DNA of 64,000 nucleotides from an uncultured Anaerolineales bacterium (GTDB taxonomy: Bacteria > Chloroflexota > Anaerolineae > Anaerolineales > UBA11858), in assembly GCA_964419495.1 (NCBI GenBank), contig CAYQQX010000004.1:5165-69164 (forward strand), read 5' to 3'. The notes beneath the pieces are model-generated. The model searched no databases. It was not told the DNA's origin and saw only the letters and a list, made by a program, of their open reading frames with translations. Position 1 is the first letter of the stretch, and every line of letters starts with the position of its first letter. Position numbers and translations under genes: made by a program. Positions 3,781-60,558 of this stretch are shown in pieces.

Positions 3781-3966
3781 GTCCGGCCACGCACTGGGAT
3801 AAATTCCCAGTGCTACCGAACAACGTCCGATTGCCGGCATCGAAGACGGCCCTGCGGCCGGCACGCCTGCCCGAAGGGCCGCAAAGCGTGGTGATTGGGC
3901 TTGGAAGCAAGGCGACCAAACCGGATTCATCCGATGTGTATACTAGCCCTGGAAATCATTCCAGGG
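3781..3966 (-). other. GC-rich multi-hairpin leader/intergenic element of unknown class
   Basis: About 185 nt, much GC-richer than its flanks. At least five stable local hairpins, e.g. ccctggaa/ttccaggg (3947-3966), cactggga/tcccagtg (3792-3812), a gccc-UUCG-gggc tetraloop and tgccggc/gccggca. Lies between two minus-strand genes. Confidence 0.3.
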
Positions 3967-4030: not shown

Positions 4031-5104
4031 TCACGGCCAGGGTTCGACATATTGATCTAAAGCCCGGTTGCTGACGAAGGGCACAAAGCCCAAGGCTCGC
4101 GAAGTCTCATAAACCCAGGCGATGTTCTCCTCATCCAGGGCATAATCGACGGTGAAGATGGGAATTCCCTTATCCTGGGCCAGGCTTAAATATTCTAGAT
4201 ATTCTTCGCTGCTCATGTGCAGGGTGCTCTCGGAAAATTCGTCGTATTGTATCTGGCAAGCCTTGGGTAAACTTTGGCGATAAGCCTCTGTATCAACATC
4301 ATCATAGGTACGTGGTAATGGACAATCCCCTGGCGGATGGTTGTCCGCCCCGCCGTCGAACCAGATTTGCTCTTGGGCAATGGTGTCGATGATCTCGACA
4401 TACTCATCATATTCTGCCAGCTCAGCTGCGTTCTGGGCAATAACGATGAATTCCGGATTGCGTGTACGCCCAAATTCCACGATATCCATCACCCACCAGA
4501 TCATCTCCTGCACCGGGTCGACATTTTTGGCTTCGGCGAAGGCGATCACGCTCTCATCGGAATAGGCTTCGACCCAATCCAGGTGCACCCCATTGAAGCC
4601 ATCGTCGATGATCTGCTGAAGAAGGCCCTCTGCACCGAGCCAGATCTCCCGATATTCGTCGTACCAATAAGCCACCGGGTAGTTGCCCTCCCAGCCATCG
4701 GGATCGCTGGACACGATCCACTCTGGGTATCCAATTTTCCAGCCTTCTAGCCAATAGGTGCGATAATCCTCAGCCTGTCCTGTATTGATATAGGCAATGA
4801 CCAGCTTGGGGTGTTCGGCAGCATGAAAGCGTTCAGCAACCTCAGCCATGGGGAAGTCGGTATTGTAGGCTTCAGATGGAATGTAATCAAGCACAACCAT
4901 GTCGTAGGTTGATTCTTCGATCTGTGCGATGGTGTCTTCGTATAAATTGACATCGATAAGGTAGAGCCAGTGCGAAACTTCTTCCAAGGGCTTTTTTTCA
5001 GGACCACCCTGATCATTTGCGCTTTTGCCCAGGGGAGTTGGTTGGAAAGCACATGCCATGGAGAACAGCATGATTGATATACTGAGCAGAATGGGATGTC
5101 TCAA
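4031..5104 (-). CDS. Lipoprotein, GH114-like / TM1410-MJ1477 family putative glycoside hydrolase (endo-alpha-1,4-polygalactosaminidase-like)
   Basis: 357 aa with signal plus lipobox FSMAC. TIM-barrel strand-end motifs VVLDY, LVIAYINTGQAEDYRTYW and GVHLDWVEAY are typical of this family. Confidence 0.7.
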   Translation of the reverse strand: MRHPILLSISIMLFSMACAFQPTPLGKSANDQGGPEKKPLEEVSHWLYLIDVNLYEDTIAQIEESTYDMVVLDYIPSEAYNTDFPMAEVAERFHAAEHPKLVIAYINTGQAEDYRTYWLEGWKIGYPEWIVSSDPDGWEGNYPVAYWYDEYREIWLGAEGLLQQIIDDGFNGVHLDWVEAYSDESVIAFAEAKNVDPVQEMIWWVMDIVEFGRTRNPEFIVIAQNAAELAEYDEYVEIIDTIAQEQIWFDGGADNHPPGDCPLPRTYDDVDTEAYRQSLPKACQIQYDEFSESTLHMSSEEYLEYLSLAQDKGIPIFTVDYALDEENIAWVYETSRALGFVPFVSNRALDQYVEPWP

Positions 5105-5657: not shown

Positions 5658-5723
5658 TCACTTCGCTATGTTCAGAATGACAAAAAATTCTATCACCTGT
5701 CACTCTAAGCGCAGCGAAGAGTC
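5658..5723. repeat. Palindromic intergenic repeat, 'gtcattctga..gcagcgaag' family
   Basis: Arms tcacttcgctatgttcagaatgaca (5658-5682) and tgtcactctaagcgcagcgaagagtc (5698-5723) are imperfect reverse complements. The same motif occurs at 43565-43684, with a variant at 60282-60357. Confidence 0.7.
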
Positions 5724-5819
5724 TCCTGTACTTCAGATGGAAAGCACTGCAAGTGCAGGTGTAAGCATCGCTCTTCTGCTTCAAGCACTCTCAGGATGTC
5801 AGTGGCAAGAAATATGAAC

Positions 5820-6296: not shown

Positions 6297-7655
6297 CTAA
6301 TTTGTGAAAGGGCAGATGTCCTCAGGGAGATAAATGCGACCCCAACCATAGAAACCACCCCCTAGTGGATTCAAGATTTCTGCTTGGTTTTCATCGGCAA
6401 AGGCGATTGCTGCCTGACAGGCTGATTTTATTTCTTCGCTAGCAGAATATTCTTCCCAGAAAGCCGTCGCCATTTGGGCAAATGCGTTGCCAGGAGTGCC
6501 GGATGGAAATTTTTCGATCAGCGTTTCGTAGACAATCGTTGCTTCGGGAACGTATTCTTGGAAAGTGTGCAAGAGCATGATCCGATAGCGGGAATAGGCG
6601 CTCAGGCGGGCGCGTTCGTCAGGATCAGGGGTGGGTGTTTCCTTGGGTTGATACGCTGGGGAAGATGAGCGACCTTCGCTCCAGCCTAAGAGTTTTTCGT
6701 CGAAGATTGCTTGCTGGTAGAAGGCCAGCGCGGCGTCGTAGTCCTGGCATTGTGCAGCATCATCGCCGTCCTGCATCGCCTGAAAACGGAATTTTGGCGC
6801 TGTCGCCGATTTCTGACATGACAGCGCAAAGCCTACCCCATCCCAAGACCATGTTTCTGTGCGGGTGCGCTCCAGGATGCTGACCTCGGGACCGCGTCCA
6901 AGACCATGATTAGTCACCAACTTGAAGATGCCATCTGAGTCCGTATCGCTGATCTCGAGGTCACCATTATGGATTTCAATTGTGTTGGGATAACTCTGCG
7001 AATTACTCTCGACCAGATTCGATAGCTGGCTGCCATCCCACTCAAAGATCTGAACATTGCGGGTGAAATTAACGTGCGTTCCGACCACCCAGATTTGTGA
7101 AATGACGATCTCTGGTATGCCATTGGCGTTCATATCGCGAATGGCGCGTATGCCATGGTCGGGTGAATCGCTGGAAAACAGATAGCCCAGTTGTGGTTCG
7201 GCGGCGATGGTTTCATAGTTGCCATCTTTGCACGTGAATACAAACATCGCACCATCGATATTCTCGCCGCTGAAAATCAGACCAAAATCGACAACTACTT
7301 CAGGGACATTATTCCCGGTGACATCGATTGAAAAAACTTGCGCAATAGCTGGCAGCTTTTCACCGTCCAAGTCGAATGGACCCTCTAGCGCAGGCTGCAA
7401 CTTATCTGCAGAGCCTCCGGAGTTAAGATACTCCAGAATTTGGGGTTGAAAGATTTCGATCAGATTGTTCCCCGGGCCGTCAAGAGAGAAGTCCGGGGAT
7501 TGATCACTCACAGTGGGGCAGGTAACCGTAGGGGTGGGGGGTGTGGTGGCTGCCAGGGAAGCTGCCCTAATCTCCATAGGAATCATGATGAAAACTAATA
7601 AGCTGACACCCAAGCAGATAATTTCTAGTAGGAGAAATTTATCTTTCGAAGTCAT
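6297..7655 (-). CDS. Membrane-anchored extracytoplasmic protein with FG-GAP/VCBS-like loops and TPR-like C-terminus
   Basis: 452 aa with an N-terminal TM helix. Asp-rich loops DVTGNNVPEVVVD, DMNANGIPEIVIS, SDTDSDGIF. The C-terminal helical part contains DYDAALAFYQQAI. Confidence 0.5.
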   Translation of the reverse strand: MTSKDKFLLLEIICLGVSLLVFIMIPMEIRAASLAATTPPTPTVTCPTVSDQSPDFSLDGPGNNLIEIFQPQILEYLNSGGSADKLQPALEGPFDLDGEKLPAIAQVFSIDVTGNNVPEVVVDFGLIFSGENIDGAMFVFTCKDGNYETIAAEPQLGYLFSSDSPDHGIRAIRDMNANGIPEIVISQIWVVGTHVNFTRNVQIFEWDGSQLSNLVESNSQSYPNTIEIHNGDLEISDTDSDGIFKLVTNHGLGRGPEVSILERTRTETWSWDGVGFALSCQKSATAPKFRFQAMQDGDDAAQCQDYDAALAFYQQAIFDEKLLGWSEGRSSSPAYQPKETPTPDPDERARLSAYSRYRIMLLHTFQEYVPEATIVYETLIEKFPSGTPGNAFAQMATAFWEEYSASEEIKSACQAAIAFADENQAEILNPLGGGFYGWGRIYLPEDICPFTN

Positions 7656-7746
7656 AGCTCTTACTCAAGTCTACATTTTCCAGTTTTCAGGAGATCGTTG
7701 TATTTCAAAGTTTCTGAAAACCTACTGACCACTACCCACCTCTCTA

Positions 7747-9738
7747 TCACTGCCCTCCGCCAGGATTGACTTTGTAGACAATCACAAAGCCCTGATCGGT
7801 AGCCGCCACTGAAGGATCACAGAGGATCATGCCGCTGCGGCTGGTATCCTGAATAACTCCTTGTTTCAGCAGCGCGAAATCTAAACCATCCTGGCTTTCG
7901 AAGACAGTGATGCCCTGGGCGCAGTTGTACATGCGGATGCTGTCATCGGGCATAACAATCGAGCCAGGCACAGACCCGTTTTCCACACGCACGCCTTCGT
8001 CCGCAGTAAATTCCAGGCCGTCGGTGCTGCTGGCGCTGTAGATATCGCCGCCGTTTAAATACATGCGATAGCTGCCATCGGGGAGCTGGATTACGTCGGG
8101 ATCATAGATGTTGTCCATCCAGATGCGCACACCCTCCTCGAGGGTGAAGGTGATGCCGTCATCAGAGATGGCGCTGTAAATGGGGTGGGAGAGCTGACGC
8201 ACAGCGATATCGTAGAAGTACATGCGAATGCGGCCATCAGGAAGCTCGAAGGCGTCCGGGTCAACGGGAACGATGTCGCCTAGGCCTGTGAACTCTGCAT
8301 TTCCAAGCATTTCCCAAGATTGCCCATTATCATTACTGCGAGCAATGCCAATGCGCTCCATATTGGGTCCCGTCATGTAGGTGAAGTCGACCCAATATGC
8401 CCACAGCGTGCCATCGGAAGTACGTATCACTTCTGGAACGGAGGCTTTGTCAGCCAATAGAATGCCTTCGCTCCAGGTCAGGCCATCGTTTGAGGTGGCG
8501 TAAAAGGTCTGGTCTACAAAGGCATTGTGCCCACCACCAGGGCCTTCACCGGGCTCGCCAGGGGACATAAAGGCATCGCCCAGGCATTCCTGCAGGAAAG
8601 GTTCTTCGTCAGTTGTTGGCGGTCGCTGAAAGGTAGATATGTCTTCAAAAACGTCATCTCCCCAGGCATCACGCAGACAACTTTCTTGCTCAGCAGTCAT
8701 GTTTTCGAAGGGATTGAATTCAGGAACATGCTGCCCGCCGGGTGCCCCCCCAGGAGTTCCAAATTGTGCATCTTCATCTGGATTGACCAACGCAAAACCT
8801 GGACTGGCAACGATAACTTCGTCGCCCAAACCAACCGATTCGGCAGAGATCACGGTGCTGAAATCTGCAGCACTTAATGGATGCATGAGGTCATTGTGAA
8901 CAGCCCTGCGGATAACGGTTTTTCCGTTCTGGTCGATATGTGCGTAAGTCCAATATTCGCCGGTTGCCATATCGAAAAATCCCGAGGGTACACCCCCTGT
9001 GCCCTTGGTTAGCAAGCCATCGGGAAGAGAGGGTTCCAAAACGTACTCACCCTGGAGTTCTTTTGAGACCCAAACTGAAGTTGACGGCCCGTGGGAAACA
9101 TACAGCACAAATTGGTTGCCGTCAAAGAATATATCTGGGTCTGAGAACGATCTGAACTTAGAAGAATTGGAGAGAGTTATCGTAGCGCGTTGGTCCTCAT
9201 CAAGGGTGAACTCCGCGCCATCGCTGCCCTTTACTTCCGTAGCAGATCCAATCTCTCGCACGCAGCTTTCCTCGTCGGAAGAGCAGCCGGCGGGGTCCAT
9301 GCCGAGTTGACCATATAGGAAGAACATCACCAAGTTACCACCCTCATCGATGATCAGGGACGGATCGACATACCCGCCTTCGAGGCCAGGAATTTGAACC
9401 CGCACAGGGGGGTCGAGAGTGTCGCTTTCTAAATCGTAGCGCACCAATTCTCCTGGGGTGTAGACATAGAGCGTGTTGCCGCGCTGGATCACATCGGGAA
9501 CTGACCCTTGATAAGGCTCCCAACCAGGGATCAGGCTCCAATTCTCGCCATCATCGCTCTGTGCCAGGTAAACCATGTGGGACTGTGGATTGTGACAGTC
9601 AGTGCCATCTGATGTATCGCAGGCGTGAAAAGCCATCAGGTAGATCCCGGTGACCGCTCCTGAAGATGCCTGGATCGAAGATGGAAGGGCAATAGCTATT
9701 CCTGTAATTACGAATAAGAATACGGATAATCTCTTCAT
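7747..9738 (-). CDS. Secreted BNR/Asp-box beta-propeller protein (sialidase/glycosidase-like)
   Basis: 663 aa with a signal peptide. Asp-boxes SDDGENWS, SNDGLTWS, SNDNGQSW, SDDGITF and STDGLEF match SxDxGxTW. Confidence 0.7.
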   Translation of the reverse strand: MKRLSVFLFVITGIAIALPSSIQASSGAVTGIYLMAFHACDTSDGTDCHNPQSHMVYLAQSDDGENWSLIPGWEPYQGSVPDVIQRGNTLYVYTPGELVRYDLESDTLDPPVRVQIPGLEGGYVDPSLIIDEGGNLVMFFLYGQLGMDPAGCSSDEESCVREIGSATEVKGSDGAEFTLDEDQRATITLSNSSKFRSFSDPDIFFDGNQFVLYVSHGPSTSVWVSKELQGEYVLEPSLPDGLLTKGTGGVPSGFFDMATGEYWTYAHIDQNGKTVIRRAVHNDLMHPLSAADFSTVISAESVGLGDEVIVASPGFALVNPDEDAQFGTPGGAPGGQHVPEFNPFENMTAEQESCLRDAWGDDVFEDISTFQRPPTTDEEPFLQECLGDAFMSPGEPGEGPGGGHNAFVDQTFYATSNDGLTWSEGILLADKASVPEVIRTSDGTLWAYWVDFTYMTGPNMERIGIARSNDNGQSWEMLGNAEFTGLGDIVPVDPDAFELPDGRIRMYFYDIAVRQLSHPIYSAISDDGITFTLEEGVRIWMDNIYDPDVIQLPDGSYRMYLNGGDIYSASSTDGLEFTADEGVRVENGSVPGSIVMPDDSIRMYNCAQGITVFESQDGLDFALLKQGVIQDTSRSGMILCDPSVAATDQGFVIVYKVNPGGGQ

Positions 9739-24835: not shown

Positions 24836-24870
24836 TTTTTATTGCCTAACTGCGAGTTAAATCCTGAAAA

Positions 24871-24936
24871 TGCCTGAGCGGACACTGAGCTGAACCCTGA
24901 GCCTGTCGAAGGGTGACGAAGTGGTAGTCGAAGGCT
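24871..24936. repeat. 66-nt repeat, copy A (near-identical to 31916-31981)
   Basis: tgcctgagcggacactgagctgaaccctgagcctgtcgaagggtgacgaagtg[g/c]tagtcgaaggct, with a single mismatch between copies. Flanked by aaatcctg ... caggattt. Confidence 0.9.
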
Positions 24937-25618: not shown

Positions 25619-25751
25619 CTATGCTATTTTACTTGCTCTTTGGGGTAGAGCAAGGGCTGGGGATCGCTGGGAGTGGAAATTTTCGTGGTGTTTAAACATA
25701 TAGCCTGGCTGGTTGGGCTTCGAGAACCTCAGCCCTCTGATCATCCGCTGT

Positions 25752-25810
25752 CTGAGCCTCTCGAAGAACGCGGAGTTTCGTCAGCCCCCCAATGTTGGGG
25801 GTATAGGGGG
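25752..25810. repeat. Composite repeat fragment (ctgagcctctcgaag + ccccccaatgttggggg)
   Basis: Shares ctgagcct.tcgaag with the 66-nt repeat, and cccccaa..ttggggg with the GC-rich family at 13290 and 60161. Confidence 0.5.
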
Positions 25811-30943: not shown

Positions 30944-31933
30944 ATGCAGGCAATCTGGCTCGAAGATCAAAAACTTGGCATTCGTAACGATATTTCTGTT
31001 CCTAAGCCAAATCCAGGAGATGCTTTAATCCGTGTGCGGTTGGCAGGCATCTGCAGCACAGATTTGCAACTGGTGCGCGGTTATTATCCTTTCACCGGCA
31101 TTTTGGGGCACGAGTTTGTCGGTGAAGTCGTTGAAGCTCCAGGGTATCCCCAATGGGATGGGCAGCGCGTGGCCGGAGAAATCAACATCGTTTGCGGAAA
31201 ATGCAGCTCATGCATGGCGGGGCGGGCAAATCATTGTGAACAGCGCTCCGTTTTGGGGATCAAAAATTGGCATGGTGCTTTTGCCGAATACCTGACTTTG
31301 CCTGTTGAGAATCTTCAACGAATTCCTGGAAAATTATCTGATGAAGCAGCCGTTTTTGTTGAGCCGCTTGCTGCTGCCCTGCAGATTCAAGAACAAGTGG
31401 ATATTCAACCCTCTGACCAGGTGTTGGTAGTGGGTGCTGGCCGTTTGGGCCAGTTGATCGCCCAATCCTTGACGCTGACCGGATGTGAATTACAGGTTGT
31501 TGCTCGCCATGACAGCCAACGCAAGCTCCTTAGCGAACGAGGTATTATGGCCATAGGAGAATCTCAAATTCCCGAGCGAAGTATGGACATTGTCGTAGAT
31601 GCCACTGGCGCCCCAGGCGGCTTTGATTTAGCCCGTAAAGCCATCCGCCCTCGCGGCACGCTGGTGGTCAAGAGTACCTATGCCTGTGATCTGCAGTTGA
31701 ATTTTTCGGCCATTGTCGTCGATGAGATCACTGTCATCGGCTCGCGCTGCGGGCCCTTCAAGCCGGCCATACAGCTGCTTGAAAATGGGCAGATCGATCC
31801 CAGACCGTTGGTGTCGGCCCAGTATTCATTGGCAGATGGCTTGGCTGCGATTGCTCATGCTGAGCAGTCGGGCGTTATGAAAGTGTTGCTCAAATGCGAG
31901 CAGATTACCAAAAACTGCCTGAGCGGACACTGA
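30944..31933 (+). CDS. Zinc-dependent medium-chain alcohol/polyol dehydrogenase
   Basis: 329 aa with GICSTDLQLVRGYYP..GHEFVGEVVE, structural Zn cysteines CGKCSSCMAGRANHC, and Rossmann motif VVGAGRLG. The last 6 codons lie inside repeat copy B. Confidence 0.9.
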   Translation: MQAIWLEDQKLGIRNDISVPKPNPGDALIRVRLAGICSTDLQLVRGYYPFTGILGHEFVGEVVEAPGYPQWDGQRVAGEINIVCGKCSSCMAGRANHCEQRSVLGIKNWHGAFAEYLTLPVENLQRIPGKLSDEAAVFVEPLAAALQIQEQVDIQPSDQVLVVGAGRLGQLIAQSLTLTGCELQVVARHDSQRKLLSERGIMAIGESQIPERSMDIVVDATGAPGGFDLARKAIRPRGTLVVKSTYACDLQLNFSAIVVDEITVIGSRCGPFKPAIQLLENGQIDPRPLVSAQYSLADGLAAIAHAEQSGVMKVLLKCEQITKNCLSGH

Positions 31934-32002
31934 GCTGAACCCTGAGCCTGTCGAAGGGTGACGAAGTGCTAGTCGAAGGCTGGCTTATGGCGTCCGCTCA
32001 GG
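31916..32002. repeat. 66-nt repeat copy B with 11-bp terminal inverted repeat (MITE/REP-like)
   Basis: 31916-31981 matches 24871-24936. cctgagcggac (31918-31928) is the reverse complement of gtccgctcagg (31992-32002). Confidence 0.85.
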
Positions 32003-43012: not shown

Positions 43013-43230
43013 CCTTACCTCCATGTACTGTTATTCGCATAGCCATCACGCTGCGTATAGTTTATCCCAGGCTGGAGTGAAAGTCAACAGGACTGAAGTA
43101 CTAACCAGAAATCAAGAATGAAATTACGCTGATAACGTAGCCCGTTAACCCAATTAAGAGAAGTCTGGAGGCGATATGATATCGTTTAGTACGTAGATTT
43201 CTTTGTTGAATAAGACGGATAAGGGATTGG

Positions 43231-43815
43231 TCAATCCCGATTTTTTATCAGATTCAACCATGTTGGGTGGGTGGTAAATTTATTCCAACGCAAATCCAAG
43301 AATCGCAAGCTTCGTAGGATCCCAAAATCCTCGGGCAGCGAGGTCAAGTTGTTGAACCGGAGTTTCGAGTCAGTGAGGGCTTGGAGTCGTGTGATGCATT
43401 TAGGGAGTATGGTAAAGCGATTGCCCTGGAGGTCTAATATGCGCAACTCCGAGAGCTTTCCCAGCGCGTTGAGGAGAGATTCCAGCGTATTATTCATGGC
43501 GTAGAATTCTCGAAGGTGGGAGTGGTCTAAATGGTGGTGTTTCACAAAATCCACTGGAATAAGTGTCATTCTGAACGCAGCGTCGCCGAAGGCGTGCAGA
43601 GCAAGCGGAGTGAAGAATCCCTGAAACCAAACAATTATCAAGCAAAGCAGGATGCCTGGGATTCCTCGCTCCACTCGGAATGACAATAGAAAAGTTTGTG
43701 CCTTCTGAATAATGAACACCACGAAAATCACCACTCCCTCGAAGGTTGTTCAAATTGCCAATTGAATCTGGAAGTCGGGAAATGGCATTGTTGTATAGAC
43801 GAAATTCAATCAGAG
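43231..43815 (-). pseudogene. Leucine-rich-repeat protein remnant (5'-truncated, interrupted by MITE)
   Basis: LIEFRLYNNAISRLPDSIGNLNNL (43746-43815) and REFYAMNNTLESL...LDLQGNRFTILP...NNLTSLPEDF (43231-43516) are LRR units. No start codon: the frame opens only 10 codons upstream, after a TAG. Confidence 0.7.
43517..43737. mobile_element. 221-bp non-autonomous element (MITE) with 8-9-bp target-site duplication
   Basis: Direct repeat ctcgaagg(t) at 43509-43516 and 43738-43745. Terminal inverted repeat ggagtggt (43519-43526) / accactcc (43730-43737). Internal palindrome gtcattctgaacgcagcg...cgctccactcggaatgac (43565-43684). Confidence 0.8.
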
Positions 43816-43817
43816 AA

Positions 43818-44411
43818 TTATGTGGCGGAGTCAGGCGGAGCTACCCTCATAATTTCCGTGACTCTGATCTTTAGTGTTTTTTCATACTCAAAGTAGATAT
43901 CGTAGAAATCTGTCTTTGTGTTCCTCTCGCCCGCATTACTTGCTGTTATGGCTTCAATTTTTACGCGAAGCTTGTACCTTCCCAGTAAGTGATGGGTTTT
44001 TCCCGCAGACACATCATGGTATGAGATTTTGAAATGGGGATTTGGAATTCTGCGCGCTTTTGTAATTTCAATTTGACTTGACTTTTTGGCCGCGATATCC
44101 AGCTTGCCTTTTATGGGTTCATTTCTTACACGCCACTTGAGCGCTTTGCGTTCATACCCATTTGGCGCCATCATCCAGTCATCTCGATAATAGAATTCGA
44201 AACCTTCTACAATAACGCAGCAGTTACGAACTGGTTCTCCTTCATTTTTCACTACCAATCGGACACTTTTTTCATCTCTATTTGGTTTTAATATTCTCTG
44301 GAGAGATATTCTTTTTGAACCTTTTTCGATTGTCAAATCAGGGTTGGTTTTTTGGTCTCTAGACAGCATTTGGGCCTTCTCTTCATTGACTGGACGTTGT
44401 TTCACCATCAA
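43818..44411 (-). CDS. Hypothetical Lys/Arg-rich protein (AT-rich island)
   Basis: 197-aa ORF with no recognisable motif and low GC. Confidence 0.45.
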   Translation of the reverse strand: MMVKQRPVNEEKAQMLSRDQKTNPDLTIEKGSKRISLQRILKPNRDEKSVRLVVKNEGEPVRNCCVIVEGFEFYYRDDWMMAPNGYERKALKWRVRNEPIKGKLDIAAKKSSQIEITKARRIPNPHFKISYHDVSAGKTHHLLGRYKLRVKIEAITASNAGERNTKTDFYDIYFEYEKTLKIRVTEIMRVAPPDSAT

Positions 44412-60160: not shown

Positions 60161-60221
60161 CCCCCCTAACCCCCCAACCCTTCGATATCACTCAGGGCAA
60201 GCCTTGGGAGGTTAGGGGGGG
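60161..60221. repeat. GC-rich palindromic repeat (same family as 13290-13372)
   Basis: Arms cccccctaaccccccaa (60161-60177) and ttgggaggttagggggg (60204-60220). The core cccttcgatatcactcagggcaag matches the reverse complement of 13331-13360. Confidence 0.75.
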
Positions 60222-60263
60222 CTTACTCCCGAATACTCTTTTCATCTGCGTAACTCCAAATTT

Positions 60264-60386
60264 CAGTAGATCACGATTTTGTGTCATTGCGAGGCGTTTC
60301 ATGCCGAAGCAATCCCCCTCTAAAGGGTGGAGATTGCTTCACTCCGTTCGCAATGACATCCATAATTGGGAATCTGTGATCTACTG
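60264..60386. repeat. 123-bp nested inverted-repeat (MITE-like) element
   Basis: Outer 11-bp inverted repeat cagtagatcac (60264-60274) / gtgatctactg (60376-60386). Inner arms gtcattgcgaggcgtttcatgccgaagcaatc / gattgcttcactccgttcgcaatgac. Confidence 0.7.
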
Positions 60387-60558
60387 AATTTATTTAATAT
60401 GGAGTGCCTAATATTTTGTTTGTCAGGTAAACCCCTACAAATCAGGGGGCTTTTCCCGCTACACCGAAATGCCCCCCTTTGCTAAGATGATAGTGCAATA
60501 ATTCACTCATCATCGCTCCCGTCGCAAGTGCAGACGTGTACGTGCAGAGGACATCTTT

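Follow-up and report, generated by a model that had tools for sequence, protein, structure and literature searches.

A 221-bp element, very probably a MITE, in a remnant LRR gene of a marine Anaerolineales bacterium

Bacterial MITEs include Correia/NEMIS in Neisseria, RUP in Streptococcus pneumoniae, Nezha in cyanobacteria, and Chunjie in Geobacter. They are non-coding sequences of 100 to 400 bp, bounded by terminal inverted repeats (TIRs) and a target-site duplication and folding as a long hairpin, which occur in several near-identical copies and insert into genes and IS elements. All of these properties are shared by a 221-bp element within the window, the 64,000-nucleotide stretch of Anaerolineales DNA analyzed here. 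We consider it very probable that this element is a non-autonomous DNA transposon (MITE) inserted into the LRR coding sequence of a marine Anaerolineales bacterium. A first-pass annotation made from the sequence had read the site as a MITE insertion, and the evidence below supports that reading as essentially right.

The direct repeat that was reported to flank the insertion is reproduced: CTCGAAGGT is present twice, at 43509-43517 and 43738-43746. It had been taken as a duplication of either 8 or 9 bp, and the longer option is refuted. Because the ends of the element are set at 43518 and 43738 by alignment with a second copy (L035), the duplication is 8 bp, and the ninth base of the match (C, 43738) already belongs to the element, as its final nucleotide. 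The exact 8-bp direct repeat abuts both ends, at 43510-17 and 43739-46. The inverted termini noted just inside it are perfect over 9 nt, GGGAGTGGT (43518-43526) and ACCACTCCC (43730-43738) being fully complementary in inverted orientation, and the imperfect arms reach 24 nt with 75% complementarity. Each TIR contains two GTGGTG sub-repeats, 12 nt apart, and nested inverted repeats lie further in (43564-82/43667-85 and 43604-21/43658-75). As single-stranded DNA, the element folds into one long hairpin (MFE -40.9 kcal/mol, z = -4.4), a stability that none of 200 shuffled sequences reaches. The parts of the insertion are as follows.

43510 to 43517, unstranded: left copy of the target-site duplication, TCGAAGGT; boundary from comparison with the second copy
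43518 to 43738, unstranded: the presumed MITE, 221 bp, non-coding; limits from homology in L035 6447-6647, L056 1188-1388, and L052 1-244, and from the fold
43518 to 43541, plus strand: left TIR, GGGAGTGGTCTAAATGGTGGTGTT; from the inverted repeat and the pattern count
43715 to 43738, minus strand: right TIR, reading GGGAGTGGTGATTTTCGTGGTGTT on the minus strand; from the inverted repeat and the pattern count
43739 to 43746, unstranded: right copy of the target-site duplication, TCGAAGGT; an exact repeat

This arrangement is not expected by chance. When all perfect 9-nt inverted repeats with a spacing of 40 to 600 nt in the window are counted (197 pairs), the pair at this element is the sole one with an exact flanking 8-bp direct repeat, compared with 0.003 expected; 200 Markov simulations gave two structures with a 7-bp repeat. 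The terminal 9-mer has only two matches in the whole window, both at the ends of the element, and the pattern GGGAGTGG-N8-GTGGTGTT has three, compared with 0.06 expected. At 221 bp, the element lies below the limit of about 600 bp for a MITE, and it has no transposase coding capacity. Its internal 50-aa ORF has no Pfam match, an Rfam search of the element returned no match, and its TIR, written as GGGAGTGGT-N7-GTGGTGTT, has no annotated match in the collections searched.

Other copies with the same ends, which the first-pass annotation had called for as a check, were recovered. All six frames of the element were translated and searched against 5.8 billion proteins, and one frame was searched by phmmer against 1.84 billion cluster representatives; both searches recovered spurious ORFs built from other copies, and these were the sole matches of the six-frame translations. 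Four kinds of copy were found beyond the window.

L035 6447-6647 (also L036 to L038): copy (a), 201 bp, differing from the window element by 5 mismatches and an internal deletion of 20 nt; flanked by GTTTGTC, 7 bp
L056 1188-1388: copy (b), the same 201-bp variant at another locus; no flanking duplication
L052 to L055: copy (c), 98% identity over 151 nt, with 43 nt more in its interior; left flank missing, all four loci shown starting at nucleotide 17 of the element
P0027: copy (d), a full copy with other flanks, represented by protein only

Homology between the window and L035 copies begins and ends exactly at GGGAGTGGT and ACCACTCCC, and the element boundaries are base-identical at three unrelated loci. 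The same TIRs are found in all copies; the right TIR is matched base for base by L035 and L056 over its first 24 nt and by the related element of L007 described below over positions 3 to 24. The duplications are specific to their sites, with TCGAAGGT in the window, GTTTGTC at L035, ATCAAGG(G) at L007, and none at L056, and their length varies by locus (8 bp in the window, 7 at L035, 7 or 8 at L007). Outside indels the copies are ~97 to 98% identical. The element is found at at least five loci across metagenomes of one sample series; the window contains one full copy and one partial sister copy, and a plasmid BLAST with the element returned nothing. In tetranucleotide composition, L052 (r = 0.87) and L056 (r = 0.80) fit the window lineage, and the fit of L035 is lower (r = 0.70). 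The copies document what appears to be a family recently active in marine Anaerolineales, and on the present sampling it seems to be a small family confined to this lineage.

The L035 copy lies within an IS1182-type transposase gene (DUF772 and DDE_Tnp_1_6). Removal of the element together with 7 bp restores the transposase frame, whose C terminus then reads …VEGSLSALIRGNGLRVSRYVGQRKRHLQAVFTGCAANLQRV…, and extends the DDE_Tnp_1_6 match from 1-89/125 (45.5 bits) to 1-124/125 (73 bits). The IS1182-type element (L035 5009-6765, ENA ERZ23498668) is broken twice, by a gap or frameshift between two ORFs and by the MITE in its C-terminal domain, so that the locus is a nested insertion of one mobile element inside another. 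It was considered as the parent and rejected. The contig carries ~185 nt beyond the transposase remnant, and no matching TIRs were found in the portion of the IS element that it covers; the transposase domain is itself cut through by the MITE. The IS1182-type element is thus the target rather than the parent.

The same TIRs also bound elements with other interiors, two of which are listed here.

L007 5480-5648: sister element, 169 bp, intergenic, with the same TIRs and an unrelated interior; flanked by ATCAAGG(G), 7 to 8 bp
25669 to 25760 of the window (end approximate), plus strand: partial sister-MITE copy with the same TIR (GGGAGTGGAAATTTTCGTGGTGTT) and a different interior; second TIR missing

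About 90 nt of the 25669 copy align to the complete 169-bp element of L007. The intergenic regions of L007 and the window do not align, so that the window provides no empty site for the L007 element. L019 carries an 81-nt mini-element that has little beyond two TIRs. The strict TIR pattern gave 9 listed matches in GTDB genomes, 12 in metagenomes (a collection that lacks the source contig of the window), and 13 in viral contigs, almost all of them single chance matches; only L007/L016, L019, and possibly L020 look real among them. At L020, one convincing TIR lies beside a DUF1287-like gene, with no transposase and no clear second end. The TIR-like sequences of L004 and L014 (Aggregatilineales) were rejected as MITE ends, since they are direct repeats of ~90 nt upstream of genes and are probably regulatory. 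In L004 these repeats (617-700 and 4156-4240) lie upstream of a Rieske-type oxygenase gene, beside a ZnuA-like operon, and both open with the TIR-like GGGAGTG(G/C)TGAATAT…; the same locus is present in L014.

Taken together, the duplications and TIRs are what a DDE transposase characteristically leaves when it mobilizes a non-autonomous element in trans. The enzyme, encoded at another locus, would bind the 24-nt TIRs, for which the GTGGTG sub-repeats are plausible binding sites, cut the target with a stagger of 7 to 8 nt, and join the element to it; gap repair would then generate the 8-bp duplication. The cognate transposase that the first-pass annotation had suggested looking for was not found. 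No parent with matching TIRs is encoded in the window, where the search included Pfam analysis of 10 ORFs in low-GC regions, which revealed no transposase, and none was present among the listed matches of the genome, metagenome, and viral scans or in plasmids.

The central palindrome of the element had been described as common to other repeats of the window, and this is confirmed because a hairpin covariance model matches several further window sites. The matched unit is 25 nt long, with the form GTCA-NNNN-GAGCGNAGCGA-NNNN-TC, and combines a stem of 5 bp with tandem G·A pairs and a mini-hairpin, GCGNAGC. This core is a motif known as an “extraordinarily stable mini-hairpin” (PMC13037366). The units in the window are as follows.

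43657 to 43687, minus strand: 25-nt hairpin module GTCATTCCGAGTGGAGCGAGGAATC, the better-preserved inner arm of the 221-bp element; covariance model R1, 35.9 bits, E = 2e-6
5696 to 5726, plus strand: hairpin unit; covariance model, 38.8 bits
60329 to 60360, minus strand: hairpin unit; covariance model, 20.5 bits
5649 to 5684, minus strand: hairpin unit; covariance model, 16.7 bits
60280 to 60317, plus strand: hairpin unit

A degenerate inverted partner of the 43657-43687 hairpin lies around 43564-43621 on the plus strand. The interior is therefore a face-to-face doublet of a short structured hairpin, which is the architecture of a REPIN (PMC3116915), and the element could be read as a hairpin repeat of the REPIN or PATE kind, mobilized in single-stranded form by a RAYT- or IS200/IS605-type HUH (Y1) transposase. 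The strong compensatory covariation of the hairpin unit and its wide occurrence on its own agree with such an origin. However, HUH-mobilized elements make no target duplication and do not need terminal inverted repeats, whereas both are present here: exact 8- and 7-bp duplications flank the element at two loci, a 7- to 8-bp repeat surrounds the sister element, and the 24-nt TIRs are common to elements without the hairpin interior (L007, window 25669, and L019). We regard mobilization by an HUH transposase as very improbable and retain the MITE reading.

The distribution of the hairpin unit extends far beyond the element. The pattern GTCATTCYGAGYGNAGCGARGAATC occurs in at least 120 viral contigs, and among the matches listed its positions 8 and 20 are T/A in 117 and C/G in 26, with 0 mismatched. 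When four stem positions were freed (GTCANNNNGAGCGNAGCGANNNNTC), the stems were perfectly complementary in 206 of the 223 viral instances listed, with 11 variants. These compensatory stem variants indicate that the 25-nt unit is a hairpin. The viral loci taken were L057 to L176 and L297 onward. The unit is also present in plasmids of Planktothrix, Calothrix, and Oscillatoria (Cyanobacteria), Hymenobacter (Bacteroidota), and Granulicella (Acidobacteriota). Rfam 15 has no entry for it, and none of the papers found by a literature search gives the sequence. About 20% of the units listed have a downstream inverted partner, 127 of 206 listed are intergenic by a crude ORF call, and those listed with genes on both sides lie between convergent genes in 22 cases, compared with 4 between divergent genes. 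A second motif, CCCTTCGACARGCTCAGGG, found in the interior of the sister subfamily with the same TIRs, likewise occurs in at least 120 viral contigs.

The insertion itself is routine, and its only unusual feature is a tiny hairpin module that is also found in phages and several bacterial phyla. A tentative suggestion, which we think rather unlikely, is that the TIR-bounded elements of this lineage are carriers of, or preferred landing sites for, self-mobile hairpin modules that cross phylum and phage boundaries. If so, the element would be a snapshot of undescribed mobile or functional single-strand hairpins hitchhiking in a conventional transposon. This side observation could matter more than the insertion, and an uncatalogued, covarying 25-nt hairpin found across phyla deserves a targeted survey.

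Other small repeats were noted in passing. A second MITE-like hairpin element of 133 bp occupies 60259-60391 of the window; its 16-nt inverted termini (AATTTCAGTAGATCAC and GTGATCTACTGAATTT) are 94% complementary, and it encloses a face-to-face doublet of the 25-nt hairpin unit with a covarying ATTGC/GCAAT stem. No duplication is evident at its ends. A 70-nt intergenic repeat occurs at 24867-24936 and 31912-31981, with 97% identity between the two copies, and contains ACCCTGAGCCTGTCGAAGGGT, which resembles the reverse complement of CCCTTCGACARGCTCAGGG. C-rich/G-rich palindromes at 60161-60220 (CCCCCCTAACCCCCC…GGGAGGTTAGGGGGG) and 25770-25800 (CCCCCCAATGTTGGGGG) have the appearance of a further family of small hairpin repeats located between genes. 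One viral contig with a hairpin unit (L091) has a sub-threshold match to the Rfam Acido-Lenti-1 RNA at 3877-3918 (30.5 bits, compared with a gathering score of 37).

The host gene of the window copy could be compared with its orthologs in related contigs. The gene order in L023 to L030 is MBL hydrolase, orf184, a 298-aa LRR protein, GNAT, MarC, XerC-like integrase, and ABC ATPase; in the window, it is MBL hydrolase, orf197, LRR fragments with the element, integrase, and ABC ATPase. Protein identity between the window and its relatives is 66% for orf184 and 83% for the integrase, and the intergenic stretch upstream of the integrase has 81% nucleotide identity. Between window positions 43100-43820 and L027 2957-5116, the genes for the GNAT acetyltransferase and MarC have been lost from the window, while orf197 and the XerC-like integrase are intact. 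The features of the window locus beside the element are as follows.

43818 to 44411, minus strand: orf197, the conserved upstream neighbor, 197 aa, no known domain; synteny anchor
43747 to 43813, minus strand: upstream piece of the LRR remnant (…NSLIEFRLYNNAISRLPDSIGNLNNL…), aligning to ortholog residues ~154-178
43231 to 43509, minus strand: downstream piece of the LRR remnant (…FYAMNNTLESL… to the stop codon), 48 to 49% identical to the C-terminal half of the ortholog; Pfam LRR_8 and LRR_4

A fusion of orf197 with the LRR gene was considered and ruled out, because orf197 is 62 to 69% identical to stand-alone proteins of ~180 aa encoded directly upstream of the intact LRR gene in the related contigs, where the LRR protein is a separate 298-aa gene product.

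The 298-aa ortholog is an LRR protein (Pfam LRR_8, 141 bits) and is uninterrupted over the insertion point, where it reads GDLSNLRELYAMNN and the window reads GNLNNL/REFYAMNN (the slash marks the junction). The N-L-R-E codons are present in a single copy in the ortholog DNA; in the window, ACCTTCGA flanks the insert at either end. The empty site is taken here from orthologs that are ~50% identical in the LRR gene; no same-strain empty-site allele was present among the assemblies inspected, and the restored LRR protein is absent among 5.8 billion proteins. The in-frame junction proposed in the first-pass annotation was reproduced, in that deletion of 43517-43745 (229 nt) joins …RLPDSIGNLNNL (…IGNLNNL) to REFYAMNNTLESL… in one minus-strand frame. 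After this removal, the in silico empty site reads …AATTTGAACAACCTTCGAGAATTCTACGCC…, and the restored frame (…IGNLNNL/REFYAMNN… across the junction) has 126 residues, is collinear with the orthologs, and matches Pfam LRR_8, LRR_4, and LRR_14. The LRR period is 23 residues rather than the 24 that had been given.

The 229-nt insertion, 3n+1 in length, cuts the LRR frame in two and leaves a pair of overlapping ORFs that each consist in part of translated element. Of the description of the locus as one gene plus a translated MITE, the part that attributes the two ORFs to the insertion stands, but the integrity of the gene was overstated, as it is a remnant even after excision. Immediately upstream, the restored frame has stop codons (…SRKL-stop-G-stop-LRLTPPHNSLIEF…), and it contains no ATG, GTG, or TTG until just before the insertion point. 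It aligns to residues ~152-292 of the 298-aa orthologs with 48 to 49% identity; ortholog residues 1 to ~153, or about 150 N-terminal codons, are absent from the window, as is one 23-residue repeat near the C terminus. In the window, the homology to orf184 stops ~22 nt before the homology to LRR residue 154 begins. Because the LRR gene lacks a start codon, its N-terminal half, and one repeat after excision, the element sits in a decaying gene, and excision leaves this remnant broken. The annotation of the region can be mended accordingly: the ORFs at 43231-43734 and 43490-43753 and a JGI-called 50-aa ORF are artifacts of an insertion in a pseudogene. The locus is an example of gene decay where gene order is otherwise conserved.

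The state of the host gene bears on an origin of the 229 nt without a transposase, by template switching, slippage, or gene conversion, in which the flanking repeat would be microhomology. LRR genes are internally repetitive, the loss of one repeat and the N terminus marks this locus as recombinationally unstable, and the L056 copy has no duplication. Against this, the inserted sequence is unrelated to the LRR sequence, its boundaries are base-identical at three unrelated loci, and directly beyond these termini the L035 copy and the sister element are each bordered by a repeat of their own; we consider such an origin even less probable than mobilization by an HUH transposase. That the element is removed or bypassed by self-splicing or programmed frameshifting, with the LRR protein still made, is scarcely credible: the element is open in two minus-strand frames and contributes the GTG start codon of the 167-aa ORF that lies downstream, but it has no Rfam match, the insertion length is 3n+1, the LRR gene lacks a start codon and ~150 N-terminal codons whether the element is present or not, and the same element also disrupts a transposase gene at L035. 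Transposition of a MITE into a gene already in decay or since decayed remains by far the preferred account.

The insertion is carried by every inspected assembly that extends past the site (L001 and L031 to L034; five contigs from four or more samples). L001/L031 (JGI contig Ga0115650_1000808) and L032 differ from the window by one base, inside the element, and the shorter assemblies L033 and L034 show no difference from the window wherever they cover it. The variable base is at 43676, where the window has T and L001/L031/L032 have C; the 2-bp inner stem of the hairpin unit thus has a G·T wobble in the window and a G-C pair in the other assemblies. Because every inspected same-strain contig carries the insertion as far as it extends, the insertion is not an assembly artifact. 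Two window-strain assemblies end 30 and 54 nt inside the element, and those of the L052 locus also break within it, as expected for a repeat. The host organism, an uncultured marine bacterium, is closely related to the MAG “Anaerolineales bacterium BS150m-G17.” Positions 6764-7850 of its contig L007 align to window positions 19812-18729 with 82% nucleotide identity, the GH25/SnoaL protein encoded there is 87% identical, and its tetranucleotide correlation with the window (0.915) lies among the values for 5-kb pieces of the window itself.

Compared with the bacterial MITEs named at the outset, the element differs in that it duplicates 7 to 8 bp, whereas Correia and RUP duplicate TA, and in that its family has no known parent IS. 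An 8- to 9-bp duplication with GG/GGG termini would fit IS256, ISKra4/ISMich2, IS1595, or ISL3, which, according to ISfinder, have similar duplications of 7 to 9 bp, GGG termini, and TIRs of ~24 nt; as the sequences searched yielded no transposase gene bounded by the TIRs of the element, it is assigned to none of these families. ISKra4 was reportedly first described in a Chloroflexota species.

Like the Rickettsia palindromic elements (RPEs), the 221-bp element is palindromic, lies inside a protein-coding gene, and is translated within an ORF. However, RPEs keep the reading frame on insertion and functional proteins tolerate them, whereas this insertion has a length of 3n+1, breaks the frame, and has a remnant as its host. 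With the REP/REPIN-RAYT system (PMC3116915), it shares an interior made of an inverted doublet of a short structured hairpin, and the solo and doublet hairpins are mostly intergenic and favor convergent gene ends. In contrast, REPINs lack both TIRs and duplications and are tied to a single genome and a single RAYT, while the hairpin here lies inside a TIR-bounded element and is nearly sequence-identical across phyla and phages. A literature search found no paper on MITEs in Anaerolineae. Overall, what is known in this locus is ordinary transposon biology, and what is new is an undescribed, low-copy MITE family in marine Anaerolineales.
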